From a virus, in IMG/VR virus record IMGVR_UViG_3300046005_001038, positions 15,833 through 79,832 of that record: DNA of 64,000 bases, one strand, 5' to 3'. The stretch's first letter is position 1. The number at the start of each line of letters is the position of its first letter. The notes below the pieces were generated by a model that had not been told where the DNA came from, made no database searches, and worked only from the letters and a program-made list of their open reading frames with translations. The position numbers were made by a program, and so were the translations under genes. Below, piece by piece: positions 15,189 through 33,690 of this stretch.

Positions 15189-16384
15189 AATAACTCCTTA
15201 ATGTTAATTGAAGAACCGTATAAACCAACATTAGGTTGTGTTATCGGGTTTAATTGTGAAAAACGTCCAATAAATGAACGTGCGTATTGATATGAACCAG
15301 TATCTTCTACATCATAAGCATAAAGAACTTCTCTTGTGATACCTTGTGAACGACTTGCTTCATAAATACCGCCAAAGGCTTCATCTTCTGTTAAATAGTT
15401 CCATTGAATGTCCACTGTGCGAGCTTTTTGCTTTTCGTAGAAGAATTCTGTTCCTGAATTTGACACACTGATTTCAGAATTATCTTGAAATCCATGTGAA
15501 ATAGAACCGTACTCAGGATTGATATTAGGCATCGTGTATTGACCAATGAATAACCGTCCAAATTCAATAAATAAATCAGGATGTGTCGCTTCGGTTGAAT
15601 CATCTAAATCAATGTGTAAATGTGTTCCGACAGGCTGATTACCTGTCAGAACGTCTTTTAAAAATGAAATATGAATTTTTGTAAAAGACAGTCTTTGTTC
15701 TTCTTCAATTGTTCCTCGCCACAAGTTCGTACTACGCCACGATAAGAATGCTGAATTACTAGGTAGAATGCGTTTCCACACATTTACCCATTCAGGCTTG
15801 TTTAACACAATGGATTCCGTTTTACCTGACTGTAATCCATAACCCACATACCAAATCGAATACGATGTTTGAGTGCCATTATTAACGTAATCACCCGTTC
15901 TACTAACCGTTAAACTTGTACCAGAATGTGACACAACAGTTGCATTAAAATACGAACCCGATGTATAATCATTTTTGTCAGAACTAAATGCGAAGAAACG
16001 TAGTTTAGTTCCCGTAGCAATAGTAGGCACAGATGAATTTAACGTCAGCGTAACATTGTTAGTTCCCATAATATCGACAGTAGAATTACTATATTCAATA
16101 GGAGGTTCATTGAAAACTGAAAACTTAACTTTTGCAGAAGTGCTTAAATTGTGGTTAATCAAACCAATCGCACCGAAGATTCGATACGGTAAGTTTTTAA
16201 GCGAAGTAGCAAAAGAAACCTTTTTAGCTGAAATTGAACCGAAATTGCTTGTTCTTGCTGTTTCAGCTAAAATAGGTGTTGTAATGTTACTCAAAGGTAA
16301 GTTAGAATTGTTCGTCCAAGTCACTTGATGTAATTTATTTAGTTCAAGTAATCTATTTGGATAAGCAATTGCAACGTTACTCAT
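15185..16384 (-). CDS. Tail tip/minor tail protein
   Basis: Position in the tail module. IGLINHNLS..A, IEFGRLFIG, NPEYG motifs. Confidence 0.7.
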   Translation of the reverse strand: MSNVAIAYPNRLLELNKLHQVTWTNNSNLPLSNITTPILAETARTSNFGSISAKKVSFATSLKNLPYRIFGAIGLINHNLSTSAKVKFSVFNEPPIEYSNSTVDIMGTNNVTLTLNSSVPTIATGTKLRFFAFSSDKNDYTSGSYFNATVVSHSGTSLTVSRTGDYVNNGTQTSYSIWYVGYGLQSGKTESIVLNKPEWVNVWKRILPSNSAFLSWRSTNLWRGTIEEEQRLSFTKIHISFLKDVLTGNQPVGTHLHIDLDDSTEATHPDLFIEFGRLFIGQYTMPNINPEYGSISHGFQDNSEISVSNSGTEFFYEKQKARTVDIQWNYLTEDEAFGGIYEASRSQGITREVLYAYDVEDTGSYQYARSFIGRFSQLNPITQPNVGLYGSSINIKELL

Positions 16385-18795
16385 AATTTGTAACCCATTA
16401 AGTTCATTGTAATTGATTTGCGTTTAATATCCATTTCATACCCGATAAGTCTAAATTTAACTGTCTGATTATACCACAATCTATCATACTTTACAAGAAC
16501 TGTTTGACCTATTTTTATATCAGGTAATGTACTAAAATAAGCCGTTAATGACACCACATCACAGCGTTTTTTAAAATAAGCAAGCAATCTATCTGTCACA
16601 GTTTGTGTATTAGCTTGCGATACCAATAATGATTCAAATTGTAATCGTTGTGATTGAGGATGTTTTTGTTTAATAATGGTATCAACCGATTCCTGTGTGA
16701 GATATTGTTGTAACAATCTCGCTTTTCTTGCTTGTGTGGTCGCACCTAATACATCTTTTTGTACTGTTTCAATCTTACCGTATTTGCCCACAACTGAATA
16801 ATACGGAACACCGTTTTCACCTACACCAGTAGCTGTTCGTTCACATGATGTGATTTGATAAGGTAGAATTGAAATATCGGCTGTTGTAGATGGTTCTTCA
16901 TAAATATCTGCATTCATAATATACGAACTGTTATCAATCGAATCACCAAACCACCAATAACCACCGACAGACTTCACAATTGAATCTAACACAGACCTAA
17001 AACTGGCTTCTTGATTGATATACAATCCAATTCCACCAGAACTAACCGAATTCAACTTTGTAATAGCGGATGAATTTACTGTGATAGATTTGCTTGTAGC
17101 ATAAGTAACGGACGAGTCTGAAAAATCAGCAGTAATTTCAGTTAATGGGATTGGAGCGTAAGGATATTCTGTACTATTCAAAGGTGTGACTTTAAATAGA
17201 TTCTGATACGCAATCCAAGTACCCTGTGCAGGTGTTGTTGCATTAAATGTACTTAATGAACCTGTCACAATGCCCGATGTAAATTTAACACCGCTATTGT
17301 ACACATTCTCAATGATAGTTGACGTTGTACCGCTAACTTGATATTTATTAGTTGGTGCATCGATTAATGTCGGTGTTTCAAATATCGTTCTCATTCCTGA
17401 TGAAAAACTAATTGATTGACAGACTTTATTAAAGACTTCCCCTGCTGAAATCACACTTGGTTTCAAAACTGAAACAGGTGTTGATATAGTTTTAATATAG
17501 TCTGTCGCAAAGCTACCTTGTTCTAATTGTGCGCCCCAGATGAATACTCCTGATGTGCCATCACCCGTGTAGCCTAGACTTGAGCCTTGAAATAATCTCG
17601 CCCACATTGTAAAAGAAACCACACTAATGCTTACAGTAAGTGTACAGCGAACCCATCCGTTACCTGCATCTGTTATTGTGGCAGAGGGTGAGGTGTAGCC
17701 AGTTCCTACCACGCTTGGTGCAGATAAAATGGTGTTATTTGTGGTGTCAAAACCAACAAAACAATAGTTAGCAGACCCGTCGGAATTTCTAAGCCATATT
17801 GAGAAGTTGCGCTCAGAACTCTTAACGTATATGGACGCTGTGTATGTATTCGTACCTGAATTAGATATGACGATGCTATTAGTGTAATGTAGTGTATTAA
17901 CTGTATTCTCAACCAACTTATCCGCAGTCAAAGTACCGTCTGGTGAGGTTGTTGCATTTGCGGTGATAGTCGCATTAGATTTAGTCCAAGCCACATTATC
18001 AAATTGTTCTGAATAAGTTAGTAAGTTTGTCCTATAAGCAACAACTACTTCTCCATCATGCGCGTCACAAGTGATTTCCTGATGATTATGGTCACCAACT
18101 TTGAAATACCCTTGAAAATGATGAAATTCACCTGCTGACACATTGTCTGAAATCAATTCAGCTAATGATACACACTCATGTGATTTAGTGAGAGCAACAC
18201 CTTTATCATAAACAGCATCTATCACACAGGTTGATAAATCACTCACTTGAAATAAATCAATGTTCGCATAACACATTACAGGTGACGCATTAGTCACAGT
18301 ACCATAAACACGAGGTTTAACATTACCCATCACATCTGTTGGTAACCCTTCAACTCCACCTCCACCTGTGTATCTTGCTTGCGTTAAAGGTGTGTCTAAA
18401 GATTCAGATAACGATTTTAACGTCAAATAAATTGAATTACCACGTTGATTAATTCTCGTCACAATACCTTTGAACCATGTTGTGACGACATTATTAGCAT
18501 CGACTAACTGTAATGTACAATCACGACCATCTAAATAATAATCTGCCAGATAATTTAATCCACCATCTGTATTATCAAGTTCGATTTCACCAATAGATGA
18601 TTGTCCTGATATGTTTGGTAATAACCCTCCATCATTAACCGCAATCGTAACCCTCGCAGGCTGTTTCATGCGAGGTTGATAATAAATACCGTTTGAATCT
18701 TTATAGCCATCATCTGAAAAGTAGATGACGCTGGGCGAACCCAGCGAATCTAAAACATTGATGGTACAAATCCAAGAACCTTGAATTTTAGCCAT
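16381..18795 (-). CDS. Tail tip/hub protein with inserted carbohydrate-binding-like domain
   Basis: Follows the tape measure gene. GEIELDNTDG.L, YTG.GG.EG, KPRVYG.V.N, inserted RTNLL..SE.F…WGAQLE.G..ATDYI domain. Confidence 0.75.
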   Translation of the reverse strand: MAKIQGSWICTINVLDSLGSPSVIYFSDDGYKDSNGIYYQPRMKQPARVTIAVNDGGLLPNISGQSSIGEIELDNTDGGLNYLADYYLDGRDCTLQLVDANNVVTTWFKGIVTRINQRGNSIYLTLKSLSESLDTPLTQARYTGGGGVEGLPTDVMGNVKPRVYGTVTNASPVMCYANIDLFQVSDLSTCVIDAVYDKGVALTKSHECVSLAELISDNVSAGEFHHFQGYFKVGDHNHQEITCDAHDGEVVVAYRTNLLTYSEQFDNVAWTKSNATITANATTSPDGTLTADKLVENTVNTLHYTNSIVISNSGTNTYTASIYVKSSERNFSIWLRNSDGSANYCFVGFDTTNNTILSAPSVVGTGYTSPSATITDAGNGWVRCTLTVSISVVSFTMWARLFQGSSLGYTGDGTSGVFIWGAQLEQGSFATDYIKTISTPVSVLKPSVISAGEVFNKVCQSISFSSGMRTIFETPTLIDAPTNKYQVSGTTSTIIENVYNSGVKFTSGIVTGSLSTFNATTPAQGTWIAYQNLFKVTPLNSTEYPYAPIPLTEITADFSDSSVTYATSKSITVNSSAITKLNSVSSGGIGLYINQEASFRSVLDSIVKSVGGYWWFGDSIDNSSYIMNADIYEEPSTTADISILPYQITSCERTATGVGENGVPYYSVVGKYGKIETVQKDVLGATTQARKARLLQQYLTQESVDTIIKQKHPQSQRLQFESLLVSQANTQTVTDRLLAYFKKRCDVVSLTAYFSTLPDIKIGQTVLVKYDRLWYNQTVKFRLIGYEMDIKRKSITMNLMGYKL

Positions 18796-21700
18796 TTACT
18801 TGTTTCCTTGTGGTTGAATCAATTGAATCGAGTTTGTCATTTGTAACTTCGTTTTGTTTAATTAATGTTCGGAAAGCTGCTTGCATGACTTCAATTTGTG
18901 CTTGCAACAGTTTGTTTTGTGTTTTCAACTCAGCTAATTCTTCTTCATTATTACCTGAATCATTAGCGGCAATCGCTCTCACACCTAATGAACCATTTAT
19001 ATTGGCCAAAGGCATGATTGCTTCTGAACCTGATTCACCCATCAAGCCCATATTGAACACAGTGGGTTTAGACACAATGCCATTTGTGAATGCACCGCCT
19101 GATGCAAAATAACCATTTGTAGAGAAATACCCATTTTTAGCATCCATATATTTTTCAAAATCTTGCCAACTACTAAGTCCTAGCTTGCGTAACATTCCTT
19201 CTACATCGGTGTAGTCACCATAATAACCTACATTTATCGCTTCACCTTCTAAGACGGAAGTTCCGTAATTAAAATATCTAGGTGTTAGTGTAGGTGTTGA
19301 CGTAGCAATATTAGAAGGAGGTATGCTTGGAATTACTGGTGATGGTACAACAGGTAATTCAGGTACAACTGCTGTAGGAATTTGAACTCCTACTGAAGCT
19401 CCCGCGTTAGCTGCATTTTGTGCAGTTATTTGTGCGCCGATTGCTTGTAATGCTGCTAAAGCTGCGTTGGCTGCGGCAACAATATCATTGATAGATTGAA
19501 TCAATGCTGAGGTATTAGCTGCTGGAAATACCATTACTGGAATTTCAATATCTGAGAAAGTTTCGATAATTCTAGCTAGCTCATCTTTTAAAGCCGTACC
19601 GCCTCCAACACCAATACCTGCCATAAGTTCGTTAAACGCAAGTGCGAATTCGCTTTCAGGGTTTAATGTCAATTTAACATCTTCAACAAATGTTGCCAGA
19701 ATGCCTGTTGCAGAATCTAAAGCAGATGTCTCAGTATCTAACAATAGTTGGCTGATATTCAAAGCAGAAATCATGTCGGTCATACCTACGGAGATTGTAC
19801 CTAACACATCGGTCATTGTATCGGTTAATTCCGCAGTAGGAACTTCTATTTTGGTTTTAACAACGGCATTGTATTTATCTAACGCTTCAGATAGGTTTGT
19901 CATAAATGAAATTTTATCTTCATCTGACATTTCAGGTGTTGCAACCACACTTAATGTAGCAGTCGTGGTTAAAACTAGATTTTCGGCAGCTTTTGCTTTG
20001 ATTGAATCATTAAACGTACTTATTGCCACTAATACTGTGCTACTAATTGCTTTTTCAAACACATCTAACGCAGGAAGTTTTAACGAATCTGAAATTTCAG
20101 AGCTTGATTTTAATGTGTTATAAGCAGCGTAAGATTTCTCAATAGCATCGCCGATAACAGTACCTTTTAAAGCATCAGGTAGAGCGAAGATTCCTGTTTT
20201 AATATCTTCTAATAAATCAACCATTCGCAACTGCGGGTCAACTTGTTGTGGTAGCACACTTACAGCATCAATCACTTGTTGTATCAACTCATTACCTTCT
20301 TTAGACGAACCATAGAAGTTACGAATTGCAGTAATTGTTTGGTCTGCCGTACCTGTGATAGAACCTTCAATAGCTGATTTAATATCAGCAACTGTTTTTC
20401 CAGTATTAGCAATATCGGTTTGTGCCATATATTTATTAAGATTAGCAATTGTGTTTTTGTCAGTAATACCCGACATATCAATTGAACCCACACCCGTAGA
20501 TGATTTATAAGCTGATAATTGATACGCCAATTTACCTTGTGCTGTATCTAATTGTGACTTAGTAGAACCTAATTGTGTGATTTGTAATCCGATAGCCCAA
20601 TCAGCGATAGCGCGTCTAAAATCGCGTAATTGCTGTATTGATTTTGACAAATCAACTTTATTTAAATTATCAACATACATTTTGACCATTGCATCAGACT
20701 TTTTCAAAGTACCTTCAACACCAGAAATCGTTTCGTTTCCATACTTTTTAATCATGTCGTTTTTGTACTTTTCTAATGCAAGTACCTTTTTACCTGCTTC
20801 ATCAGCTAATGCGTATTTAGCATCGTAACCAGCTTGTTCTGCATCATCTAAGAATGATTTCGCCTTATTGATGTCACGAGTTAATTTCATGGTTTCGATG
20901 AATTCTTTCGCTGCACTAGATGCTTCTCCGAACACAGAATTGATTTCAGCGATTTGAATGTTAAATTCAACTAAGCTACGATTATATTCGTCTAAACCTG
21001 CAACAGCTAATGCGTTTGATAATTCTTTACGTTTATTAGCAATGTCTTGTGCTGTAGCTACTTTAACTTCTGTCAAACCCGATGCGTTTCTAGCATCTGT
21101 AATGGCTTTAGTTTGACGTAACATATCAATGTAGGTATTTGCCGCATCTGAACCTTCACCGAACATATCGTTAATCGCTTTAATATCTTTTCCTAATTGA
21201 TAATCTCCTTTTTGTGTATCAGACATTCCTGCTACTAATAAGTTATCCTTCAACTCATTGTATTTACCTGTAACTAAAGATTGCTCTTTTGCACGTTGTA
21301 AAATCAATATGTCGTTTATTTTAGTAGACGATTCATTATTCATTTCTCTAGCAATTCGCAATTCTTCAGCATTTTGCATCATCCGTTTGTTATATTCAGA
21401 TGTTAATTGATTTTCAGACGTAATCAAACTATCAATCGATAACTTTTGTTTTGCTGCATAGTCAGCTTTGTTTTTCGTATCAATCAATGCGTCGGAATAT
21501 GCTTTTAACGAGCGTTCAGTCACATTAACTGTTTCAGTAATACCGTAGAACTTCTTATCAGTTTCAGATAACGTCGCGTTCCAACTAACGATGCTAGGTA
21601 ATAAATCGCTGTCGATTTGAGAAACTAAAGAACTAATATCTGTACCGATACTCAATTCAGTCAATGAATCTTTTGAAGCCTTAGCAGTCATGTAATCTTT

Positions 21701-24700
21701 AGACTTTGTAGTCGATAAAATTACATCTGTAATTTTTAACACAGATTGTTGTCTTTCTAACACAGTTTGTAATGTTTCTGTAGAATCAATTAAGCCTGAT
21801 ACGACTTTGTTGATGCCTTCTGATTGTGACGTAAGATTATTCATCCAATAATCCATCACCTCAAGTTGTGTTGACGTATCTTTAATTGATAGAATCGTAC
21901 TAACTTGTTTCAATAAATCATTAAATATCGGATTAGATTTATCGATTTTAAACGTACTTGCGATAAATGCTTCAGGATTCTCTTTAGCAGTAGTAAGCTG
22001 TTGTAAACGAGTTTCGTTTTTATCAAACATAGATAGCATACTTGTCACAAACAATCCGTTTGCACCAGTTTGATTATCCAACTTACCTTTGATTTCATCT
22101 AAATCTGACTTTTTAATATCCGATGTTTTCAAATTCATCAATGCGTCAACAGAACCTTTAGCGAATCGGTCTGCCCATTTCTGAACACGCTCTGAGTCAA
22201 AACCCGCCATGTCTTGGGGTAATAATGCTTTAAGACTAGACGTGCCTGTTAATAGATTTTGTAATGTGGTAGAATTTTCATTCACACTTTTGAAAGTTGC
22301 ATCAATTGACTTTTTCAAATCTAAATTATTCAAATCTGTGTTCACAGTGGTGATATTGTAACCTGGTGAAACAGAGAACATTTTTGAATAGTTTTCAATG
22401 TTACTTACAATACGAGTTTCATTGTCTTTTAACACTTTACTGAACGTATTGAAGAACGCTGTGTCTTTAGTAACGTCTTTTTTATTTTTAGCATCTAAGT
22501 CAGAGAGTTTTAAATCAACAATCTTACTTACATCACCACCTGTGTATTTATTAGCATAGGCTTTTGCGTAAGTAGCATTTGTTTTTTCTAAATCACTACC
22601 TGTCACAGAAGATTCTGTAATTTTAAAGTCAGTTGGAGCTTTAGTTGTGAGTGAATTGAGCAATGTAATCTGATTATTGATATTAGTAAAAATCTCACTT
22701 AGACCTTTATTCGCAATATCAAATTTTTCACCTTTAGACGTTACGACATTAAAGAATTTGTCAATAGCTGACGTAAAGTTTTTCAAACCATCATTTGCTT
22801 TACCTGTTGAATCGTACATTTGAATCAACTGCTCAGACATAATTGCAAAACCTAACGTGCCTAAATTTTTACTTTCTACACCGAGGTCTTTGAATTTTTC
22901 ATTAACTTGGTTAATATCAATCGCAACTCGCGTTAAGGTTTCAAATGCGCCTTCACCCATGCGTTTAAATCTATCTAAGAATCCATTAGTCACATCATCT
23001 GCAATTAAATCGAATGTTGTGTTTAACGAATCACTTACTTTTTTCGTAATAGCATCAGATTTCAAACCTTTCAAATCTAATTTTATTTTAGGAATAATCG
23101 CTTTAGTATCGCTTACTACTTGCAATCCTAAGATGTTCAAAGATTTAGATAGTTCTGTTGAAAAATAACCAAACACACCTTTAAATGAATTTGTCATTTC
23201 ATTATTAACACCATTGATAGTGTCATAAATCTTAACTGTGTCTGAGAACCAACCTTTAGTTGTCGCTTTTATTTTTGAATAATCATAAACTTTTAGCGCG
23301 TCAGCAGCTCCGCCAATGATGAATTGGTTAGCTTGCATTGTAATACCTGAACCAATTGCTTCAAATTTAGTTTTACCGATACCTAATAATTTACCTAAAC
23401 CAAATTGTAATCCCGCTAAAATTAATCCACCAGCAAGTCCTATGATAGCTCCCCCAACCATCATCCCTGTTGAACCAACCCCCACTCCAACAGAAGTGGC
23501 AGTCCCCATACCTACCGCAGTTGCGGCAGACGCAGCTAATGCACCACCAGCAAGCCCCATACCAGCAGCTCCCATCGCAGTTGATGAAACCAAACCAGCT
23601 CCAATCATACCAGCAGAACCCGCAGGATTTTTAGAACTTGCTGTCATTCCAGTAGTAGAACCAATCCAACCACCTTGTCTGTTTACCGCTAACGAGATTG
23701 TGTTATCAACTGCCTTTGTGATATTTTTAAATCCATCCGCAATATCGCGTAATGCACCGTATTCTTTCACATGGATAGATTGCAATGTATTTGTGATATT
23801 ATCGACTGAGCGAGAAGATTCTGACGATGCTCCGTACACAGAGCTAGTAAAAGCCGATTCAGGTGTTGAAGTGTCTACAGGTTTAGTTTTGAAAAGCGTT
23901 TGCATTAAACTAATCGCCATTCCACCAATCATTGCTGCTCCACCAGCTAACCAGTTTCCTGACATCATCGCATTCATACCGATGTTCATTAAACTTGAGC
24001 TAATATTAGACACAAGGTTTTTAAACATATCGCGAAACGCATCAGTAAAGGATTTACCTTTAGTCAACACATCTGTGAACATGGTTGTAAAACCTGATGT
24101 AATTGAACCTGTCACAGTATCTTTAACAGAGGTTAATAGTTTTAGATTTTCTCTCGTATCAATCAAATCTCTAATTTCTTGTGCCTGTGTTCCTGTCGCT
24201 CCTGCTTGTTTGATTTTAGACTGTTTTTCTAACTCTAATGTAGAAGTTGTCAAAGAGGTTAGTAAATCGTCATTACCTTTAATTAAATCAGGTATAACAT
24301 TACGTTGTTGTTCTTTTAGTGATAATTGAATACGATATAAGTCAGTAATTTCTTTATTCTTAATAAGAAGTTCAGAATCTGTATCAAGCAACATAGTTTC
24401 AGTATCTACTCTCATTGCAGCGTAAGCAGAATTTCCAGTTTGTTTGAATAATTTTTCATATTCATCAGCCATATCTGTTAATTCTTTTTTGGTTGCTGAT
24501 AATTCATCACGCAATTTTAATTGCTCTTTAATCGAACTATCTATTGCAGGAACAGCGAATCCACCGAGTTCTTTAGCTAAATCTTTTGCTTTTAGTGACA
24601 CATCTTGACGTTCTCGCAATTCATCAAACGCATGACTATAAGCATACCCAGCTTTTTCTAGCTTTAATAAATCTTGAAGTTCACCAGCTCTACGACTACG

Positions 24701-27700
24701 CTCTGTATCAGCAATTTCATTCGCTTTAATGTATGCTTGGTCTTGCCAACCAATTTGTTTTCTAATTAAAGTTAATTGTTTATCTAATTCTTCAGCTCTT
24801 TTAGCATCTGACTTTAAAATAGCTTCATTGCGTTGTTTCTTGACTTCATCAAACTCAGCCAATCTTGATTGTAATGTAACGAATTCTTGTGATGCTTTTA
24901 CTTGTGATTCTGAACCTCCCATTCTGCCCATTACTAGAGGAACATAATCTTTTGTTTCAGGTCGAAGATGTGACATCCAATCTTTACCATCAACTTTTGA
25001 TTTTTCTATTACTGATTTAACTCGATTTTCACCAGCGTTGTATCCCGCTAGTGCTTTAGTTAAATCACCGTCAAACATTTTCAATAATTGATTTAGATAT
25101 TTGTTAGCAGCTTTCACGGCTTGCTCAGGGTCATAAGCATCTATGCCGAAACCTTTAGCTGTAGCTGGCATAAATTGCATCAATCCCATTGCACCTGCTC
25201 TTGAAGTAGCGTTTGCTATACCTCGTGATTCTTGTGCTGCAACAGCTCTTAGCAATTCTGGAGAAACTTGACCTGAAGCATATTTTTGAAATAAAGGATT
25301 GTACTTGTCTAATCTTTTTACTGTATCCTCAGTATCAACAACAGCTTTGATTTTGATAGGATTTTTAACAGAATGTAACTCGACCTGTTTATTGACTTTT
25401 TCTAATTCTTGCTTTAACCATTCATCATCTACTTGGATTTTAGGTGTGAGTGATTCGAGAGTTGATTTTGCTTCTCTGGCTGATTTGTCTGCTGCTTCTT
25501 TTGCTAAATCAGCTTCTACTTTCGCAGCAGCTTTATTTCTAGCATCAGCTACCATTTCAGGAGCTTTGACTGATAAAAAGTCATAGTATTCTGTTGTACC
25601 GACAGTACCTGCTTTTTCTTTTAATTGTTTTGGTAAGAAATTGTATGTTTTATCTAATAAATCATTTGTTTCTTTTTTAATGCGGAAAAGTTTATCGTTT
25701 GCTTGTGTAAGCTCTTTTGTTTTCTCTATCTCTTGCGATAATGCTTTACCGAAAGCCGTTTTAATATCTAATTGTTCTACTTGAAGTTTATTCAACCCTT
25801 GTGTACGTTTTGCTTCGGCTATTTTTTCTTCTTCATTGATACTGTCGATTTCCTTTTGTTTTTTTAACTGCTCATCTAATAAAGCTCTCTCGGCTAATAA
25901 TTTAGATTTATCATACACTCCTATCACATCAGAAACAGCAGTTCCTAAACGCGATTGTTTTTCGTGCGCGTTAATAGAACTATCTATTTCACGCATACGT
26001 TCAATTAGTTTTTGTTGTTCAGTTTTAGAAGCCTGTTCTTCTTGACTTTTAGAATAACCGTACATCCCAAGACCTGCAACTGCACCAACAGCTAAACCTA
26101 TAGGACTTCTACTCATTAAAGCCATACCCGCAGCCGCTTTTTCTGAATTTAATGCTACTGTAATTAAAGCTGCGCCTAATGCAGTTACTCCAGAAACTAA
26201 TAAATCCATGTGTTCGCCAATTGCTAACATGGATTTAAAGAATAAATCGCTGGCATGACTACCTTCGTTCATTCTTCCGACGAATTTAGTAAAATAAGTT
26301 TCTACTTCAGTAAAACCTTGTGCAAATGTTTTATGCGTTTTTTCAAAAGTTTTATTTATCTCATCGTTACCTAAAAGGATAGCTTTAAAAAACGCTTCAG
26401 ATGTTATTTTTCCATCATACATAGCATTTCTTAAATCAGCTATTGTTTTAATGTGTGTTGGTGAGTTTTTAATAGCTTCTATTTCAGCAGCAGTCGCTCC
26501 TCGTAAAGCAGCTTCTTCTAATTTTATTGTTTTAGCTGCTTCATCATAATGTTTAACTACAATTCCCATCACATTAGGCATACTATCAAGAATAGACTTA
26601 AACTCTTGACCTCTGACCGTCACACCGCCTAACGCTTGTTCTAACTGTAACAAGCCACCTCTAACTGCATTAGGGCTTGTACCCATGATAGCCAGAGCTT
26701 TTGTTACTGTGTCAATAGCCTTTACTGTATCGGATTGAGTAGCGTTAAGTGACTCGGAAGCTCTTGACATTCTTAAATACAATGTAGTAATAGAGTCTAA
26801 TGGAGCGCGAGCATCGACAGCAAGTTTAAACAATCTTTCTTGCATACCAGCCGCATTACCTGTCTTTTCAGTAGCGATGCCTACAGCATTGGTAAAATGT
26901 GTCCAATGGTCAGCGTATTCCATAATCTGACGACCTGACATTGCTACACCAACCATCATTAAGGTTTGTTGAAGTTTGTTTAGACTGTTTGAGAGTTCGT
27001 TGATGACTGATGTTTGGTTACCTGAACCTGTTTGACGACTTTGTGAAATTAACTGTTGTTGACGATATGCTAAGTTATCTGCTTCTTGTCTACGAATTTC
27101 AGCTTCTATTCTAGCTGAATCTGAAAATCTAGTTTGATTTTGAACATTAACACTTCCCATTTGAGAAGTCATTGAAGATAAACGTGGTGGAACATAGGTA
27201 GATGATTGTGACATCGCAGCAGTCATCGCGTGAGTGTGTGCAATTTTATCAGCAAGAATAGCAGCATCAATTTCTTTTAATGTTTGTCTACGCGCTCTCC
27301 ATGCAGCAAGTTCTCTTTCCATATCAGTTTGAATAGCTTGTTCGTATGCAGAGTTATAACTACGTTGGTCAGACAACTCTTTATCTTTTCTAGCTTTTTC
27401 ATCAGCCATATATTTTAAATGAATCGCTCCTAATTCATTATAATGATTATCAATCTGTTTTTTAGCGTCTAAATATCCTTTTAAATCTCTCTCCCACTCT
27501 TTATAGTTCACACCGTCTGACGCGCGAGTAGCAGCTACATTAGGTCTATCGGTAGCCATTTTGTTATATTCAGCAGTAACAACTACTGACGCTTTAACTG
27601 AGTTTTGTAATTGTGTATTTATTTCCCTAGAGATGTTAGCTACTTGCTGACCTATATTTTTGTTATCTATCAGCAAACCAATGATAATTTCTTTGTGACT

Positions 27701-28048
27701 AATATCAGCTATTAAAGAATTTATTTTCGATACAGATTCGCTTACCTTTTTTACTGTAGCGTCCATCGACTTAGAAATCTTTTCAACATTATCAATATCA
27801 ACTGTTATTTTAATTGGCTTTTCTAATTCCTTTTTATTCTTATTGATTTTTTCTTCGACACCAGCTAAAGGATTCGTATCAAATGATTTAAATTTTAATT
27901 CAATATCATTGATTGCTTTTAAAGTCTTTTCTAACGCGCTAAGATTAGTATTTGCGGTAGCCGCTTTCTCGCCCACACTCTGTAACGTACTACTCGCATT
28001 ATCCGTTACTTTAACTTCAATACTGACGCTATTATCGATTTCTGACAT
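18788..28048 (-). CDS. Tape measure protein (3086 aa) with SLT lytic transglycosylase domain
   Basis: Tape-measure domain (YAD.W…QLEQALG…GQEF.SI). SLT motifs AVAAQES, AGAMGLMQFMPATA, ALAGYNAG at about 24930-25300. C-terminal FASGG…GESGSEAIMPL. Confidence 0.93.
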   Translation of the reverse strand: MSEIDNSVSIEVKVTDNASSTLQSVGEKAATANTNLSALEKTLKAINDIELKFKSFDTNPLAGVEEKINKNKKELEKPIKITVDIDNVEKISKSMDATVKKVSESVSKINSLIADISHKEIIIGLLIDNKNIGQQVANISREINTQLQNSVKASVVVTAEYNKMATDRPNVAATRASDGVNYKEWERDLKGYLDAKKQIDNHYNELGAIHLKYMADEKARKDKELSDQRSYNSAYEQAIQTDMERELAAWRARRQTLKEIDAAILADKIAHTHAMTAAMSQSSTYVPPRLSSMTSQMGSVNVQNQTRFSDSARIEAEIRRQEADNLAYRQQQLISQSRQTGSGNQTSVINELSNSLNKLQQTLMMVGVAMSGRQIMEYADHWTHFTNAVGIATEKTGNAAGMQERLFKLAVDARAPLDSITTLYLRMSRASESLNATQSDTVKAIDTVTKALAIMGTSPNAVRGGLLQLEQALGGVTVRGQEFKSILDSMPNVMGIVVKHYDEAAKTIKLEEAALRGATAAEIEAIKNSPTHIKTIADLRNAMYDGKITSEAFFKAILLGNDEINKTFEKTHKTFAQGFTEVETYFTKFVGRMNEGSHASDLFFKSMLAIGEHMDLLVSGVTALGAALITVALNSEKAAAGMALMSRSPIGLAVGAVAGLGMYGYSKSQEEQASKTEQQKLIERMREIDSSINAHEKQSRLGTAVSDVIGVYDKSKLLAERALLDEQLKKQKEIDSINEEEKIAEAKRTQGLNKLQVEQLDIKTAFGKALSQEIEKTKELTQANDKLFRIKKETNDLLDKTYNFLPKQLKEKAGTVGTTEYYDFLSVKAPEMVADARNKAAAKVEADLAKEAADKSAREAKSTLESLTPKIQVDDEWLKQELEKVNKQVELHSVKNPIKIKAVVDTEDTVKRLDKYNPLFQKYASGQVSPELLRAVAAQESRGIANATSRAGAMGLMQFMPATAKGFGIDAYDPEQAVKAANKYLNQLLKMFDGDLTKALAGYNAGENRVKSVIEKSKVDGKDWMSHLRPETKDYVPLVMGRMGGSESQVKASQEFVTLQSRLAEFDEVKKQRNEAILKSDAKRAEELDKQLTLIRKQIGWQDQAYIKANEIADTERSRRAGELQDLLKLEKAGYAYSHAFDELRERQDVSLKAKDLAKELGGFAVPAIDSSIKEQLKLRDELSATKKELTDMADEYEKLFKQTGNSAYAAMRVDTETMLLDTDSELLIKNKEITDLYRIQLSLKEQQRNVIPDLIKGNDDLLTSLTTSTLELEKQSKIKQAGATGTQAQEIRDLIDTRENLKLLTSVKDTVTGSITSGFTTMFTDVLTKGKSFTDAFRDMFKNLVSNISSSLMNIGMNAMMSGNWLAGGAAMIGGMAISLMQTLFKTKPVDTSTPESAFTSSVYGASSESSRSVDNITNTLQSIHVKEYGALRDIADGFKNITKAVDNTISLAVNRQGGWIGSTTGMTASSKNPAGSAGMIGAGLVSSTAMGAAGMGLAGGALAASAATAVGMGTATSVGVGVGSTGMMVGGAIIGLAGGLILAGLQFGLGKLLGIGKTKFEAIGSGITMQANQFIIGGAADALKVYDYSKIKATTKGWFSDTVKIYDTINGVNNEMTNSFKGVFGYFSTELSKSLNILGLQVVSDTKAIIPKIKLDLKGLKSDAITKKVSDSLNTTFDLIADDVTNGFLDRFKRMGEGAFETLTRVAIDINQVNEKFKDLGVESKNLGTLGFAIMSEQLIQMYDSTGKANDGLKNFTSAIDKFFNVVTSKGEKFDIANKGLSEIFTNINNQITLLNSLTTKAPTDFKITESSVTGSDLEKTNATYAKAYANKYTGGDVSKIVDLKLSDLDAKNKKDVTKDTAFFNTFSKVLKDNETRIVSNIENYSKMFSVSPGYNITTVNTDLNNLDLKKSIDATFKSVNENSTTLQNLLTGTSSLKALLPQDMAGFDSERVQKWADRFAKGSVDALMNLKTSDIKKSDLDEIKGKLDNQTGANGLFVTSMLSMFDKNETRLQQLTTAKENPEAFIASTFKIDKSNPIFNDLLKQVSTILSIKDTSTQLEVMDYWMNNLTSQSEGINKVVSGLIDSTETLQTVLERQQSVLKITDVILSTTKSKDYMTAKASKDSLTELSIGTDISSLVSQIDSDLLPSIVSWNATLSETDKKFYGITETVNVTERSLKAYSDALIDTKNKADYAAKQKLSIDSLITSENQLTSEYNKRMMQNAEELRIAREMNNESSTKINDILILQRAKEQSLVTGKYNELKDNLLVAGMSDTQKGDYQLGKDIKAINDMFGEGSDAANTYIDMLRQTKAITDARNASGLTEVKVATAQDIANKRKELSNALAVAGLDEYNRSLVEFNIQIAEINSVFGEASSAAKEFIETMKLTRDINKAKSFLDDAEQAGYDAKYALADEAGKKVLALEKYKNDMIKKYGNETISGVEGTLKKSDAMVKMYVDNLNKVDLSKSIQQLRDFRRAIADWAIGLQITQLGSTKSQLDTAQGKLAYQLSAYKSSTGVGSIDMSGITDKNTIANLNKYMAQTDIANTGKTVADIKSAIEGSITGTADQTITAIRNFYGSSKEGNELIQQVIDAVSVLPQQVDPQLRMVDLLEDIKTGIFALPDALKGTVIGDAIEKSYAAYNTLKSSSEISDSLKLPALDVFEKAISSTVLVAISTFNDSIKAKAAENLVLTTTATLSVVATPEMSDEDKISFMTNLSEALDKYNAVVKTKIEVPTAELTDTMTDVLGTISVGMTDMISALNISQLLLDTETSALDSATGILATFVEDVKLTLNPESEFALAFNELMAGIGVGGGTALKDELARIIETFSDIEIPVMVFPAANTSALIQSINDIVAAANAALAALQAIGAQITAQNAANAGASVGVQIPTAVVPELPVVPSPVIPSIPPSNIATSTPTLTPRYFNYGTSVLEGEAINVGYYGDYTDVEGMLRKLGLSSWQDFEKYMDAKNGYFSTNGYFASGGAFTNGIVSKPTVFNMGLMGESGSEAIMPLANINGSLGVRAIAANDSGNNEEELAELKTQNKLLQAQIEVMQAAFRTLIKQNEVTNDKLDSIDSTTRKQVNG

Positions 28049-28059
28049 CTTTAAATTCC

Positions 28060-28770
28060 TTATTTATCGGTTTCTGATTGTTTATTGTAATGCTCTAAAA
28101 ATACCCTATCTAACATCTTAATAACTCGTGTTTCATAAGGTGATAATTTATTCCCTGTCAATGTACACCATGCCACAATTTCTGTGTAACTAATCGCATT
28201 TACACCCATACCTGATTGTCGTGTTGAATTCAAATCTAGGATAAATTCCCACAAATATACGACGCAATCTGGTATAGGTTCACATTCTAATTGTGGTGGA
28301 GTAACGCCTGTTTGACGTTTGATAGATTCTAACTGTTCTTTAAGTGTAGAACCGTCTTTTTGTTTGCTAGACAATTCTAATTCATGTTTAGCGAAGTTAA
28401 TCAATCCTTCGACCATTGTGTCCAATTTAGACGATAATTCGTTTGATACGCGAAGAATCTGATGCCTAATGAATGGATTAGTCGAACACAATGTGTGAGC
28501 ATTCTCTTTCGTGAAAGGTTCAGTGATTCCATCCCAACCGACAATTCGACTTGATGCGGCAAGAACTTCGAGTTCCAATTCATTCACAGTAGAATGACCG
28601 TTTTGAAACTCAGCGATACGTTGTGCTAGTATAACCTGTGATTTTAATGTGGTAGATGCTTGTTCTGCATGAGCTGATGTCACAGTGATAAATAAACCTA
28701 TCCCTTTACCTGTCAGTTCAGAGGTAACTTCAAAAACATAAGGTGTTTCGTCGATAGGGAGTATTTTCAT
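28060..28770 (-). CDS. Tail assembly chaperone, G-T-type fusion
   Basis: N-terminal half paralogous to 30544-30939 (RIVGW.GI.E.F, TNP.IR.Q). C-terminal half gpT-like (YLWEF..L..TR..GMG..AISY.EI.AW…LD..F). Confidence 0.8.
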   Translation of the reverse strand: MKILPIDETPYVFEVTSELTGKGIGLFITVTSAHAEQASTTLKSQVILAQRIAEFQNGHSTVNELELEVLAASSRIVGWDGITEPFTKENAHTLCSTNPFIRHQILRVSNELSSKLDTMVEGLINFAKHELELSSKQKDGSTLKEQLESIKRQTGVTPPQLECEPIPDCVVYLWEFILDLNSTRQSGMGVNAISYTEIVAWCTLTGNKLSPYETRVIKMLDRVFLEHYNKQSETDK

Positions 28771-28799
28771 AAGTAATTAGACATGGATTTGGTCTAATT

Positions 28800-28828
28800 A
28801 TTATTTCATAAATGATGGTAAAAGTCAA
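28800..28828 (-). promoter_or_regulatory. Extended -10 promoter for the G-T/tape measure genes
   Basis: TTGACT-17nt(…TGA)-AATAAT. The same TTGAC[AT]…TGAAATAAT design occurs at 41668-41696, 48190-48218, 55555-55583 and 56320-56348. Confidence 0.65.
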
Positions 28829-28878
28829 GTAGTGATGATAAATAAAAACCCGATGGTTTAGGTCGGGTTTTTATTTAT

Positions 28879-29316
28879 TTAGTATCGTAGTAATGCGTAG
28901 TTAAAATCATTTTCATCACAAATAGAATATGTTACATTCTTACGACCAGCTATCTTTAAAACATTTTCATTAGAACAGTAAGTTATCACAAAATAACCAT
29001 CAGAATTACTAACCGTCAAAGTATCCAATGTGCTATTATCAATTTTAAAACCGTTCTCACCTGACCAGCGTTTAAAAAATGTAATCCAAACAGAATCACC
29101 TAAATTTTTTCTTAAATCAGATAAATGCTTTATAAAATATCCAACAGAACATCCTTCGTAAATGTTATTTTCAATAAAATATTTAATTCCGTTTTCAAAT
29201 AATACCTCATCAATCCTACTCTCAATCACACTATCTCCGCCATCAGCCACTTCTTCATCACAAGTAAAGCAACCCATAATCTCATTGCGTAGTTTGATTA
29301 GTTCTTGGTTATTCAT
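28879..29316 (-). CDS. Hypothetical protein
   Basis: AGGAG RBS. Flanked by its own promoter module and a terminator (28843-28872). Confidence 0.6.
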   Translation of the reverse strand: MNNQELIKLRNEIMGCFTCDEEVADGGDSVIESRIDEVLFENGIKYFIENNIYEGCSVGYFIKHLSDLRKNLGDSVWITFFKRWSGENGFKIDNSTLDTLTVSNSDGYFVITYCSNENVLKIAGRKNVTYSICDENDFNYALLRY

Positions 29317-29335
29317 TTCTTTCTCCTAGATAAAT

Positions 29336-29372
29336 AAAAACCTAGCTTATCACAATGATAGGCTAGGTTCAA
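29336..29372 (-). promoter_or_regulatory. Hairpin terminator/promoter module, copy B
   Basis: TTGAACCTAGCCTATCATTGTGATAAGCTAGGTTTTT. Confidence 0.6.
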
Positions 29373-29388
29373 ATGAATTAACAGTTAC

Positions 29389-29568
29389 TTACGAAATCGC
29401 ACCAGTATAAAGAGGTGTATATTCATACAAACAATTATAGTCGCTAATATAACTTAACGGAATTGGATTTTCCGTTGCCAAAAACGATAGAATTTCATTT
29501 TTAATTTCTAAGAATTTTAAAGATTCATCATCGTTTACATATTCAAAATCAGATTTTAATTTAATCAT
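29389..29568 (-). CDS. Hypothetical protein (59 aa)
   Basis: AGGAG RBS and ATG directly after the KilA-N stop. Confidence 0.5.
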   Translation of the reverse strand: MIKLKSDFEYVNDDESLKFLEIKNEILSFLATENPIPLSYISDYNCLYEYTPLYTGAIS

Positions 29569-29569
29569 T

Positions 29570-30316
29570 TTAAGCTCCTAATAAAGTTGGTTGTGATTGA
29601 TTGTCTAATGACAATAGTATTTTATCTTTAAATCGTTTATCAAACAAGCCTTTTAATTTAATTGCTCGTTCAGAATAATCCATCTCAGCATTGATGAATA
29701 CAGCGTTGTGAGATTCGAGAAATTCAAACGCATCTAATTGAACTTTGTTTAATCCATCTCTGATATTAGCGTTACTATCTAAATTTAAGACTTCTTTGTA
29801 TTTCTTAGCTCTCATTCCAAGCACAATAAGATTTAGTAAATCCGCTTCTGTTGTGTACGCAAAGAACGGTGCGACTTTACCTTTTTCTTCGTAGCTAAGT
29901 TTGGTCGCAAAGGTCATGTTTTTGTATTCTTGTTTCACACTACCGCGAATCGCTTTCCATTCAAGCTCAGTTTTCTCTTGCACAACTAAAGTATCGTAAG
30001 CTCTAATTACATGAAGATGAAAAGTAGGGCTAAGCCACATTGCATAAGCATAAACAAGTTCTTTACAAGCATACGTCCCTTGCTTATTTCCGCCGCTAAT
30101 CACGATTAAAGGCTCTATAACTTGTTGATTTATATCCGAAGCTACCATGGTAGCCGCGCTAATTTCAGCAACAAGCTCCTTAGTGCTAGGATTATCTAAC
30201 CAAAATTGAGGACGTTTGTGTGATTTCCCACCAGATGCTTTATGAAGGTCGTTTAGACGGAATCTTAAATTTTCGTCTTGTTTGATTACTACGTTTGAGA
30301 TAACTAAATTAGTCAT
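29570..30316 (-). CDS. KilA-N domain DNA-binding/antirepressor-like protein
   Basis: LNDLHKASGG, P..WL, GTY.CKELVYAYAMWLSP.FHL.VIRAYD. Confidence 0.9.
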   Translation of the reverse strand: MTNLVISNVVIKQDENLRFRLNDLHKASGGKSHKRPQFWLDNPSTKELVAEISAATMVASDINQQVIEPLIVISGGNKQGTYACKELVYAYAMWLSPTFHLHVIRAYDTLVVQEKTELEWKAIRGSVKQEYKNMTFATKLSYEEKGKVAPFFAYTTEADLLNLIVLGMRAKKYKEVLNLDSNANIRDGLNKVQLDAFEFLESHNAVFINAEMDYSERAIKLKGLFDKRFKDKILLSLDNQSQPTLLGA

Positions 30317-30319
30317 TTT

Positions 30320-30460
30320 GAGGTTTCCTTTATGGAGGGCAGTTCTGAAAGAGGGTAACATCGAACCCTAACCGCCCATATTCATAAAAGATATTTTGAT
30401 GTGTTTTATAATGCTTTCAGACATTACGGATATGCTACCATAATTTAATTAGTCTGTCAA
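30320..30460 (-). promoter_or_regulatory. Promoter plus structured leader of the KilA-N gene
   Basis: TTGACA-17-TAGCAT. Hairpin loop UCUGAAAG is complementary to a downstream CUUUCAGA bulge. A stem abuts the RBS. Confidence 0.6.
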
Positions 30461-30543
30461 GCACTTTACACATTCTACACGCAAAGAAAAACCCTGTCAA
30501 TAATTAAATTAACAGGGTTCGTCTTTTTTCTATGGAGATAGAA

Positions 30544-30939
30544 TTACTTTGTGAAGTTACTCATGTTAGAACTCGCAGTCATAACCTGTTCACGGATTGA
30601 CGGATTAGTTTTAACTAATTCAATCGCTAATTCAGGTGAGAAGGCTTCTTCAATACCTGACCAACCAACAATACGTTTTGCTGCTAATTCAATGCCGAAC
30701 ATAATGTCGTCTTCGACTTTCTCAACAGGAGCGTCTTTACCCTTTTTAGTTGCAATACGTTGTGCTTCACGTTTACCGTTTACTGCTTTCGCTACTAAAT
30801 CAGAAATCACTTTACTGTGTTCGCCGATAATATCAATTGTAATACCAGTAACCGCACCAGACTGTTCGTCAATGATGTCCAATTTGTAAGGTGTGTCGCA
30901 TTTTTTTTCTACGTTTAATGAACTTAATGAAATTGCCAT
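30544..30939 (-). CDS. Tail assembly chaperone (gpG-like)
   Basis: Downstream of the tail tube. I.IIGEHS, RIVGWSGI, IREQV…NF. GGAG RBS. Confidence 0.8.
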   Translation of the reverse strand: MAISLSSLNVEKKCDTPYKLDIIDEQSGAVTGITIDIIGEHSKVISDLVAKAVNGKREAQRIATKKGKDAPVEKVEDDIMFGIELAAKRIVGWSGIEEAFSPELAIELVKTNPSIREQVMTASSNMSNFTK

Positions 30940-31067
30940 ATTGTATATCTCCAATAGTTATGTTAAAATTTTATTGCCTAATTGCAATACACGCGATAAT
31001 AGCATAGTGATTGGAAGATGTCAAGTTTTTTGTTGTATTTTATTTTGTTTGGTGATAGGAGTTGAAA

Positions 31068-31910
31068 ATGGAAGAAAGATTACATTGTATCTATATGATT
31101 ACGAGTCCGAATGGTAAAAGTTATGTTGGACAAACGATGAACTTTGAAAAAAGAATGCGGGAACATAATAAAACGACTAGCGGTTGTTTAGCTATCCGAG
31201 ATGCTATTTTAAAATATGGTTTTGAAAATATGAAAGTTGAAATCTTATTGAAGAACTTAACGATTGATGAAGCTAATAAGTATGAAGAATTTTATATTAA
31301 AGAACACGGTACTTTATCTCCAAATGGATATAATCTAAGAGAAGGTGGTTTAAATCATACTTTGTCGGATGAAATTAAGAGAAAGATTGGAGATAAGAAT
31401 AGAGGGAGAATTAAAACGCCTGAACAAATAGAAGCGAATAGGCAGAAATTATTAGGTAGGAAAAGCAGTGATGAAGCTAGATTAAAAATATCAATTGCTT
31501 TAAAAGGTGTACCTAAATCAGAAGAACATAAAGAGAAAACTAGACAATCTCATATTGGAATGAAAGCGAGTGAAGAAGCTAAGAAGAATATGTCTTTAGT
31601 TCATTTAGGAAAACCATTAGCTAAAGAAATAGTAGAGAAATTATCTAAAATAAGAGATGAAAAATTATTCAATAAAGAGTTCCCACACTATTTAGCTAAC
31701 ATTTCTAATTTACCCGACGATACTGAATTTAGCACTAAAGAATTAGCAGATTTGTTAAATCTAACAAAAGGTACTTTAACTAAAAGAGTTATCAGAGGTA
31801 ATTTTCCTAACAGTTACCATACATTCGTTAAAGGAGGTAAAAAGTATTTAATACCGATTAAAGACGTTCATGATTTTTATACAAAAAATAACCTCTCGGT
31901 ATTGAACTAG
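31068..31910 (+). CDS. GIY-YIG homing endonuclease with NUMOD3 repeats and C-terminal HTH
   Basis: CIY…KSYVGQT, PNGYNLREGG, SEEHK/SEEAK repeats, STKELADLLNL. Inserted antisense in the tail operon. Confidence 0.85.
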   Translation: MEERLHCIYMITSPNGKSYVGQTMNFEKRMREHNKTTSGCLAIRDAILKYGFENMKVEILLKNLTIDEANKYEEFYIKEHGTLSPNGYNLREGGLNHTLSDEIKRKIGDKNRGRIKTPEQIEANRQKLLGRKSSDEARLKISIALKGVPKSEEHKEKTRQSHIGMKASEEAKKNMSLVHLGKPLAKEIVEKLSKIRDEKLFNKEFPHYLANISNLPDDTEFSTKELADLLNLTKGTLTKRVIRGNFPNSYHTFVKGGKKYLIPIKDVHDFYTKNNLSVLN

Positions 31911-31941: not shown

Positions 31942-33690
31942 CTACGCAGTTTGTGAGTATTCTTGAATGCTCAAAGTTGTCGCTTCATACCCTTGTGAAG
32001 AATCCGCCAACAATGCCGTAAAAGGAACTGTCATCACAATAGATTGTGCATCGTCTTTTGATGCACCGCCTGTTTTAATACGAGGAAACACAAACGACAT
32101 GAATGCAGAATTAACTGTGTTTGAAGAAGATTCTGTAAACACAGCAATCAATGTAGCATCTTCTGAGTTCAAGAAAATATCACGGAATACAGTATCTTGG
32201 AAATAAATACTCGCATTACCACTTACGTTTACTTTACCTAATGTTACGTCAGGAGATGTAGTAGAACCAATAACTTTTAGAGTTTCTCCATTACCGTTAA
32301 TTGTGAAATCCAAAGAGGTAATCAAACCAACTTTGTAAATTTGACCACTTGCACCTTTTTTATCTTTAATGTACAAGTTACCTACAGCAGAAGAATATAC
32401 AGCATCAATTGCAGGGTCTAAAGGAACATCACCTGACAATGTTTCCATCATCGATTTATCTTTATCCCATGCACCAGAAGTAGATGTACTTCTATCCCAT
32501 TTCACAGTTTCTGTTGATGGGGTAGTCATCGAAGTCCCCATAACCGTGAAATCTACAGTAGCCAAACCACTTGTTGGTAACTTCACAGCCCCTTGCGTAA
32601 TACGAACACCTTTGAATAATTCAGAATAAGGAGCATCTGTTTGATTTGGTTGTTCATGACTAATATCATAATAATAATGTTCTAATTGGAACGATTTTTT
32701 CTTATGCCCTGACAACGGTACAAATGATTTTTGTCCTAAAACTTGGAATTTAGTACCGATTGCGAGTGAACCACCTACAAACGTAACAGATTCCATTGTG
32801 TTAGCAGCTACTACTGTTAGTGCTTGTGTTGTAATATCTTTAGCAATAACTAACAAAGGTATGTTCGCTACTGATGCACCATTAGCAGTCGCTGTAGAAG
32901 CTCCTACATTAGAAATAGAGAAGATTTCGCCAACTTTAATACCTGCGAATTTATTACTCGCTAAAGTTCCAGCATCTTCAGTACCTACTGTACCTTGGTC
33001 AGCCGAGTTAGGAGTAATAATAGCTACGTTAGCTGTTGCAACGCCTTGTCCTTTAACAGTGTTAGCTGGTGCAACAGCTAGTGTTCCTGCTACAGTTAAA
33101 GCAAATTCTTCAGGCGAATAGAAGTCTTTACGCAATAAAGCTGAGATGAATTCACTATAAGTATAAGACGACAATTCTGCGGATAATGTACCATCAATTG
33201 TCTGTGCGCCAATACGATAGTCAACAATTTGTTGTGAACTGTTTACTTCGTTACTTGAATAGGATTCTTTTTTCAAATCCAAGTTTGAAGATACACGGCG
33301 CAACTTCTTAGGTTTTAATTTTTTACCAGCAGATGTCCATGCTTGAGTTGCTGTAGTTGTTCCGATAACTGGCGCAATAACAATACCTCTATCAAGTTTG
33401 ATGGTTACAGATGTGGTTGTTGTATCAACCAATGTAGTAGTGTAATAAACTTGTGTACTGTTACTAAATACAATTTTAGTACCGATGTTTAAATACGTTG
33501 AAGCTGTACCTGAGCTTAACGTAATTTTAATTTCATCATCACCAATGTTATAAGTACCGCCAGCAGCAGGAGCTGTTACACCTGTAATAGTCGCTGTTGT
33601 TTGCGTTGTAGTCGGTTCTAATTCAACCACACCTAGTGTGGTTTCTGGTACATAAATTAATTGTTTAAAAATATTACTGGCAATAGCCAT
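31942..33690 (-). CDS. Major tail tube protein with inserted domains
   Basis: YVPETTLG, LRRVSS.L.L.K.SY.S.E, G.LSAELS, VSG..SIYF.D, FPRIK. Position after the tail terminator. Confidence 0.85.
   Translation of the reverse strand: MAIASNIFKQLIYVPETTLGVVELEPTTTQTTATITGVTAPAAGGTYNIGDDEIKITLSSGTASTYLNIGTKIVFSNSTQVYYTTTLVDTTTTSVTIKLDRGIVIAPVIGTTTATQAWTSAGKKLKPKKLRRVSSNLDLKKESYSSNEVNSSQQIVDYRIGAQTIDGTLSAELSSYTYSEFISALLRKDFYSPEEFALTVAGTLAVAPANTVKGQGVATANVAIITPNSADQGTVGTEDAGTLASNKFAGIKVGEIFSISNVGASTATANGASVANIPLLVIAKDITTQALTVVAANTMESVTFVGGSLAIGTKFQVLGQKSFVPLSGHKKKSFQLEHYYYDISHEQPNQTDAPYSELFKGVRITQGAVKLPTSGLATVDFTVMGTSMTTPSTETVKWDRSTSTSGAWDKDKSMMETLSGDVPLDPAIDAVYSSAVGNLYIKDKKGASGQIYKVGLITSLDFTINGNGETLKVIGSTTSPDVTLGKVNVSGNASIYFQDTVFRDIFLNSEDATLIAVFTESSSNTVNSAFMSFVFPRIKTGGASKDDAQSIVMTVPFTALLADSSQGYEATTLSIQEYSQTA

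Follow-up and report, generated by a model that had tools for sequence, protein, structure and literature searches.

The DNA analyzed here is a 64,000-nt window, positions 15,833 to 79,832 of the IMG/VR record IMGVR_UViG_3300046005_001038, and all coordinates below are positions in this window. The parent record is a single contig of 79,832 bases (35.7% GC) assembled from lake-water metagenomes, and its source is an uncultured freshwater siphophage with a genome of 79.8 kb. We describe the genes for the tail assembly chaperones in its tail module. Read along the minus strand, the module consists of a tail tube gene, a stand-alone short chaperone gene (G), a KilA-N cassette of three open reading frames (ORFs), a fused long chaperone gene (G'-T, here also G-T) and the tape measure gene. 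G encodes 131 amino acids at positions 30544 to 30939, with its ATG at 30939. G-T is a single in-frame ORF encoding 236 amino acids at 28060 to 28770, in the same orientation and 1.8 kb away. Within the fusion, the G' domain takes up residues 1 to 118 (28417 to 28770), and a linker helix and the T domain make up residues 119 to 236, which with the stop codon cover 28060 to 28416. The tube gene (582 amino acids; 31942 to 33690, minus strand) matches PF18906 Phage_tube_2 (E 4.4e-12) and phrog_290. The tape measure gene (3086 amino acids; 18788 to 28048, minus strand) was taken from the ORF list and has a Shine-Dalgarno (SD) score of -6.2. It lies 11 nt past the G-T stop and therefore belongs to the same operon as G-T.

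Almost all long-tailed phages use a frameshift at the tail chaperone; the G/GT frameshift is among the most conserved recoding events, and the usual explanation is the need for a fixed protein ratio. The lambda gpG/gpGT pair and the conserved tail-chaperone frameshift of long-tailed phages have been described previously (PMC5009743, describing Levin 1993; Xu, Hendrix & Duda 2004, 2013, 2014). The window resembles lambda in that the chaperone genes lie between the tube and tape measure genes, in the combination of a short G with a long form that adds a T domain, in the PF23812 match and in the HK97 gp10-like fold of G. It differs in lacking a frameshift, a slippery site and an overlapping T frame. 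Moreover, its long form carries a G copy of its own, its own promoter and an SD-less leader, and the two genes are physically separated. We consider it likely that a lambda-type gpG/gpGT pair is encoded here by two paralogous genes, with the ratio of the products governed by separate expression signals and not by recoding.

An initial annotation of the window had called G and G-T at these positions on the minus strand and had read the N-terminal half of G-T as a diverged copy of G and the C-terminal half as a T domain. All three readings were borne out. BLASTP aligned G with G-T at 33% identity over 114 residues (E 6e-18), and hhalign comparison of the two family profiles gave a probability of 99.9% (E 8.7e-35), with residues 10 to 130 of G aligned to residues 3 to 122 of G-T. 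Residues 151 to 226 of G-T matched PF23812 Phage_TAC_18 with 62.7 bits (cut-off 27). The family phrog_313, "tail assembly chaperone," was hit by both G (E 2.1e-11) and G' (E 1.2e-5), and PF08748 scored 19.9 bits on G, slightly below its cut-off of 21.1.

AlphaFold models (predicted local distance difference test scores of 87 and 80) gave a strand-strand-helix-helix-strand-helix-helix order common to G and G', and in the model of the fusion the last G' helix continues into a helical T domain. When the G model was compared with 48,161 chains, the HK97 tail assembly chaperone 2ob9_B ranked first (Z 4.4; root mean square deviation [rmsd] 5.6; 95 aligned), and the same chain was the top match of the G' model (Z 6.4; rmsd 3.9 Å; 91 of 104 residues). 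A Foldseek search of the models against the PDB returned nothing significant, and a search of the G-T sequence against solved structures gave no matches. Taken at the level of sequence, the locus encodes a short form that is a predicted G-type chaperone and a long form composed of a diverged G copy, a linker helix and a T domain.

At its 3' end, G reads AGT AAC TTC ACA AAG TAA, and the protein ends in ...SNFTK*. As the initial annotation had it, no T frame lies behind this gene: both alternative frames close at most 12 codons past the G stop. A T frame behind G was likewise absent from every clade locus and from L021 (all introduced below). The accompanying claim that G has no slippery heptamer stood for its 3' end, where no conserved heptamer was found in the clade described below. 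It did not stand for the gene as a whole, since two in-frame X_XXY_YYZ heptamers occur at codons 11 and 65; they are followed by stops 0 to 10 codons later, and neither is conserved. The fused genes of the window and of the related loci L008 and L021 contain no such heptamer, and in the other fused genes none is conserved in position. The long form does not arise from overlapping G and T frames, as it does in lambda, but is a separate in-frame ORF. An antisense ORF inside G (30551 to 30889, plus strand) is not kept in the related locus L004, and we took it as a shadow frame.

We compared the window with a clade of related loci drawn from IMG/VR and one metagenome contig: L008, L004/L003/L019, L006/L005/L007 and L002. 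Their genomic context, together with that of the window, was read for about seven distinct loci, and one short locus, L019, was added by a profile scan of metagenomes. Identity to the window ranged from 52 to 77% for G-T and from 61 to 81% for G. Every clade locus read has a stand-alone G and, behind it and immediately upstream of the tape measure gene, an in-frame G'-T; this supports the proposal of the initial annotation that these two genes replace the frameshift. G is better conserved than G' (61 to 81% versus 44 to 78% identity). The ratio of nonsynonymous to synonymous substitution rates (dN/dS) among clade loci was about 0.1 to 0.45 (0.10 to 0.47 for G), with dS often saturated, indicating purifying selection on G, G' and T; dN in G' was about twice that in G. 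In the protein database, the full-length fusion was represented by 24 clusters (48 to 100% identity) and G by 18, and 4 fused/G cluster pairs were found on contigs of equal size. Megablast of the region against the phage collection and a G-T profile scan of genome contigs gave no matches.

A survey for the ancestral frameshifted locus, proposed in the initial annotation, revealed that the nearest outgroups keep a two-frame G/T arrangement that shifts where G ends. Curvibacter phage P26059A and Limnohabitans phage DC31 encode T in the +1 frame, which opens within AAC TTT CGA. For Synechococcus phage Ssp-JY42 and the metagenomic locus L022, the frame of T is -1, and the heptamer ahead of it is A_AAT_TTC or A_AAT_TTT. 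All four have 114 to 125 T codons past the G stop. The shift site corresponds to the conserved Asn-Phe of the C-terminal ...ANFTK motif, where the window G reads T AAC TTC. These phages have in common with the window a homologous G (28 to 37% identical to window G and ending in ...NF[T/R]K), a homologous T domain and an identical gene order. However, theirs is a two-frame G/T locus, whereas the window has two genes and an in-frame fusion. Aligned with the predicted outgroup frameshift products, the fused protein runs collinear through the linker helix and a KQKDGSTL motif. A profile search of 1.84 billion representative proteins yielded 3377 matches, the best 150 of which comprised about 137 T-only proteins, 6 G-only proteins and 7 full-length fusions. 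Because T-only ORFs dominate these best 150 matches, the two-frame state is the rule in the family.

The outgroup shift sites lie at 3284 to 3303 in L009, 2898 to 2914 in L012, about 2880 to 2900 in L010 and about 5325 to 5335 in L022; they shift in opposite directions at the same codons. In the public records of these phages, G and T are annotated as separate hypothetical proteins. Caulobacter phage DMCA also has a G-like gene, 31% identical to window G (L011, 100 to 546; L020, 6764 to 7210). We rejected its two G-like matches as a second chaperone gene: they represent the terminal repeat of the record, beside the terminase gene and outside the tail module.

In a tree of G domains, G' formed one clade (support 99/100) on a long stem, and G, G' and one outgroup G group (P0139) came together at 91/83, with a three-way split inside. 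The tree and the faster change of G' would fit a duplication in or near this lineage. The same layout was found in L021, a viral contig of 77.7 kb in which the tube gene, G (135 amino acids), an in-frame G'-T (265 amino acids) and the tape measure gene follow in order, again with no T frame behind G. L021 G shares 57% identity with the G of the frameshifting Limnohabitans phage, against 23% with the G' of its own locus. Its fusion sits beside the +1 shifters and apart from the window clade, at 96/91 in the G tree and 89/77 in the T tree. Judged from these trees, L021 is a second, independent origin of the two-gene layout. Three further fusions, P0044, P0050 and P0043, were placed elsewhere among two-frame relatives; scans of viral and genome contigs with P0043, and of viral contigs with P0050, gave no matches.

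The candidate cases of convergence comprise the window clade and the L021/P0046 clade, with P0044, P0050 and P0043 as possible additions. That the replacement of the frameshift by duplication and fusion is recurrent and convergent in non-contractile-tailed phages, from both +1 and -1 ancestors, is a tentative generalization, which we hold to be rather less than evenly balanced. Its cause may be a very long tape measure (3086 amino acids here) favoring a G:G-T ratio, or a timing, beyond what a single slippery site provides. At about 1.5 Å per residue, the customary estimate, a tape measure of 3086 residues implies a tail of roughly 460 nm. One stretch of this protein resembles the motif of a lytic transglycosylase (...ESRG...GLMQF...AGYNAG...).

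All four of the region's best promoter matches lie on the coding strand, and all are intergenic. The initial annotation had given each chaperone gene its own promoter, placed a terminator behind G, assigned a GGAG to G and no SD to G-T, and noted an inverted repeat at the predicted G-T start site; each of these features was recovered. Upstream of G, a promoter-like TTGACA-17-TATTAT with a TG extension (30996 to 31024, minus strand) agrees with the consensus at 11 of 12 positions and is kept in the window, L008, L004, L006 and L002. Upstream of G-T and the tape measure gene, a promoter-like TTGACT-17-TGaAATAAT (28800 to 28828, minus strand) agrees at 10 of 12 positions, carries the TG extension as well and is kept in all 5 distinct clade loci. 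Behind G lies an intrinsic terminator with a 13-pair stem and a T run (30489 to 30520, minus strand), and an equivalent exists in all clade loci.

The GGAG of G is located 9 nt before the ATG (30949 to 30952, minus strand), and the predicted duplex with the anti-SD reaches -6.4 kcal/mol in 6 of 6 clade loci. The corresponding score of G-T, +1.5 kcal/mol, is the weakest of the 69 called genes (median, -5.6). The G-T leader lacks an SD in 5 of 6 clade loci (the window, L008, L004, L019 and L006). From these leaders, it is plausible that the G:G-T ratio would be set by translation initiation strength.

The inverted repeat at the predicted start of the G-T transcript, AATTAGAC-9-GTCTAATT (listed at 28775 to 28799 and also at 28777 to 28797, minus strand), is unique in the window and conserved, with two compensatory changes in L008. 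As an RNA hairpin, it did not perform: folding from the predicted +1 was no better than for shuffled sequences (z 0.38), and we rejected a hairpin in the G-T leader RNA on this basis. For this element, we hold an operator and a leader structure to be equally likely. Across the G-T start there is also a mini-ORF, ATG TCT AAT TAC TTA TGA (MSNYL*; 28767 to 28784, minus strand), whose stop overlaps the G-T start codon (ATGA). Its counterparts are MSDYL* in L008 and MSNYQ*, with a stop 1 nt before the ATG, in L006; it is absent from L004. Translational coupling of G-T to this leader peptide is possible.

Two further elements flank G. Directly past its stop, a hairpin TTCTAT/ATAGAA with a CUCC loop (30528 to 30543, minus strand) is conserved, with covarying stems, in 5 of 5 distinct loci (the window, L008, L004, L006 and L002). 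Its TATCTCCA is the exact complement of the G SD region, TGGAGATA (about 30946 to 30953). The hairpin could tune G translation through a 5'-3' anti-SD pairing, or it could belong to the terminator region and nothing more. Immediately downstream of the -10 element of the G promoter, the palindrome TATTGCAATTAGGCAATA (30972 to 30989, minus strand), kept in L008, L004 and L006, is a possible candidate operator. We rejected shared operators, as none of the three elements (the palindromes in the G and G-T leaders and the hairpin with the CUCC loop) occurs more than once in the window.

The variable insert between G and G-T (28879 to 30361, minus strand) had been annotated as a KilA-N insertion. That it is an insertion was upheld, because L008 and L004 carry nothing between the two genes, with gaps of 177 and 140 nt, respectively. 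Its content proved to be larger than KilA-N alone. The KilA-N gene (29570 to 30361, minus strand; start probably at 30316; PF04383, E 1.8e-20) is accompanied by ORF59 (59 amino acids; 29389 to 29568, minus strand) and ORF145 (145 amino acids; 28879 to 29316, minus strand), and the insert has promoter-like sites of its own at 30432 to 30500 (minus strand). In L006, the same gap holds an AntA antirepressor gene; in L002, as in the window, it holds KilA-N and an ORF145 relative.

By sequence reading, a second terminator, cccga..tcggg (cccgacctaaaccatcggg) with a T run, precedes the G-T promoter (28844 to 28867, minus strand) and occurs also in L008 at about 6470 to 6500. L008, which has no insert, carries two tandem terminators between G and G-T, and the window cassette lies between the equivalents of both. 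Since the cccgacctaaaccatcggg terminator precedes the G-T promoter in both the window and the insert-free L008, the insertion point of the cassette falls between terminators arranged in tandem. A second mobile-gene hotspot is the gap that separates the tube gene from G. It holds a GIY-YIG homing endonuclease gene in the window (31062 to 31910, plus strand; PF01541, E 1.7e-13; phrog_314, E 3.6e-36) and another in L006 (5015 to 5872), and an HNH-AP2 endonuclease gene in L008 (5308 to 5850) and L002 (2573 to 3208); in L004 it is empty.

According to our model, the ancestor would have frameshifted close to the end of G, on the conserved Asn-Phe codons. A duplication of the G region would then have followed, or the capture of a copy from a near relative. 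Of the two copies, the downstream one would have been joined in frame to T, and the upstream one would have lost the slippery site and the T frame. By analogy with lambda (PMC5009743), many copies of G and few of G'-T may coat the tape measure protein, with the T domain recruiting the tube protein. The G:G'-T ratio would result from separate expression signals, in the window clade chiefly from the missing SD on G'-T. Finally, uncoupling of the genes may have created an intergenic gap that tolerates insertions and now houses KilA-N or AntA mobile cassettes in some members.

Several observations weigh against this model or can be explained in other ways, beginning with the modest Z scores of the predicted folds (4.4 to 6.4) and with the layout, whose conservation rests on about seven distinct clade loci. 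The genome was assembled from a metagenome, and a sequencing or assembly indel might have joined G' and T in frame. We give this next to no weight. The whole stretch lies within single contigs of two metagenome assemblies (117x and 60x depth) with 0 and 1 differences, although both samples may themselves be a source of the window DNA. Because both assemblies yield the same sequence, the fusion is not an indel error. In addition, all 24 protein clusters are fused, and the frame of the fusion is kept across loci in spite of saturated synonymous divergence. In samples X3 and X4, the contigs hold just fragments of related phages, and the joints there are not interpretable. Slightly more credible, but still very improbable, is that the fused gene alone gives both forms through hidden recoding or an internal start, with G redundant or otherwise employed. 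We found nothing positive in favor of this idea. The fused genes have no heptamer conserved in position, and G is better conserved than G', is under purifying selection, is present in every locus read and retains the C-terminal NFTK end of its family.

A different origin of the pair deserves more attention. Recombination may have brought in the second chaperone gene from a different phage, as when two related tail modules come to lie in tandem, in which case G and G' would be xenologues, not paralogues of one lineage, with the same two-gene function. Window G is as similar to outgroup G proteins (34 to 41%; 36.6% for the Synechococcus phage) as to G' (33%), and the node that decides among G, G' and P0139 is a three-way split, so that a duplication within the lineage is not proven. 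Between the window and L004, identity is 79% for G, 64% for G' and 52% for T; the disagreement of the G and G-T distances is a hint of mosaic exchange, and both flanks of G are mobile-gene hotspots. Nevertheless, G, G' and one outgroup still cluster at 91/83 against the other outgroups, the GC contents of G (38.1%) and G-T (37.1%) are the same, and an accelerated evolution of G' once duplicated would account for its long stem just as well, with dN about twice that of G. On balance, we regard capture as unlikely.

Somewhat better placed, although we still doubt it, is the view that the ratio comes mainly from causes other than initiation, be it transcription, the stability of the mRNA, the mini-ORF ahead of G-T, a regulator that binds the palindrome on the G-T start site, or turnover of the proteins. 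G is bracketed by a promoter and a terminator and so forms a one-gene unit, compared with the long G-T operon. The inverted repeat on the predicted G-T +1, with its compensatory changes, would suit an operator, and MSNYL* overlaps the G-T start in the window and L008, with a counterpart in L006. The leaders are also not uniform: G-T of L002 has a GGAG, at a long spacing of 11 nt, and G-T of L021 has a good SD, though enclosed in a hairpin of -12.7 kcal/mol. On the other hand, low transcription of G-T is not evident. With its extended -10, its promoter agrees strongly with the consensus and looks strong, so that transcription alone would not be expected to lower G-T, a point that also weighs against our own model. 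Among the 69 genes, the SD-less G-T leader is the most extreme, and most of the clade keeps this state; no shared regulon is visible, because the G-T palindrome is single-copy in the window.

Two genes in place of a frameshift have a precedent. As PMC10885494 describes them, some T4-like phages have one short chaperone gene and one longer fusion gene and no frameshift, a case that PMC10885494 and PMC12846349 attribute to Vladimirov, Gautam & Davidson (Virology 2022; 566:9). On that description, the two cases agree in that a short gene, together with a longer one in which a copy of the short part is joined to a downstream part, replaces the frameshift. In the window, the short and longer genes are paralogous, and the arrangement is conserved in the clade and in L021. 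The differences, within the limits of the same description, are that the window belongs to a non-contractile-tailed phage and that its genes, in the same orientation, have a terminator, a promoter and a hotspot for mobile genes between them. The two-gene origin of the window clade is presumably independent of the T4-like case. In Microbacterium cluster EA phages, two chaperone ORFs are reported to be expressed separately (PMC7302621), but a duplicated G domain fused to T is not described for those phages. In the literature searched, we found no report of the duplicated-G arrangement in siphophages.

The two-gene chaperone described here is a well-supported further case of the principle published for T4-like phages, and for that reason nothing is overturned. 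What it chiefly adds is that sister lineages which frameshift can be seen next to a second, convergent origin. The transition is observable because the nearest relatives of the window phage still frameshift, and the case offers a defined pair of leaders for testing and a dated transition from recoding to duplication. It is also a warning for annotation, as pipelines that expect a slippery site will mislabel such genes. If the convergence is true, the gap between the uncoupled genes becomes a landing site for mobile genes. With frameshifting sisters on either side and a second lineage, these phages would constitute a natural experiment in which the ratio of the two tail chaperones can pass to ordinary expression signals.

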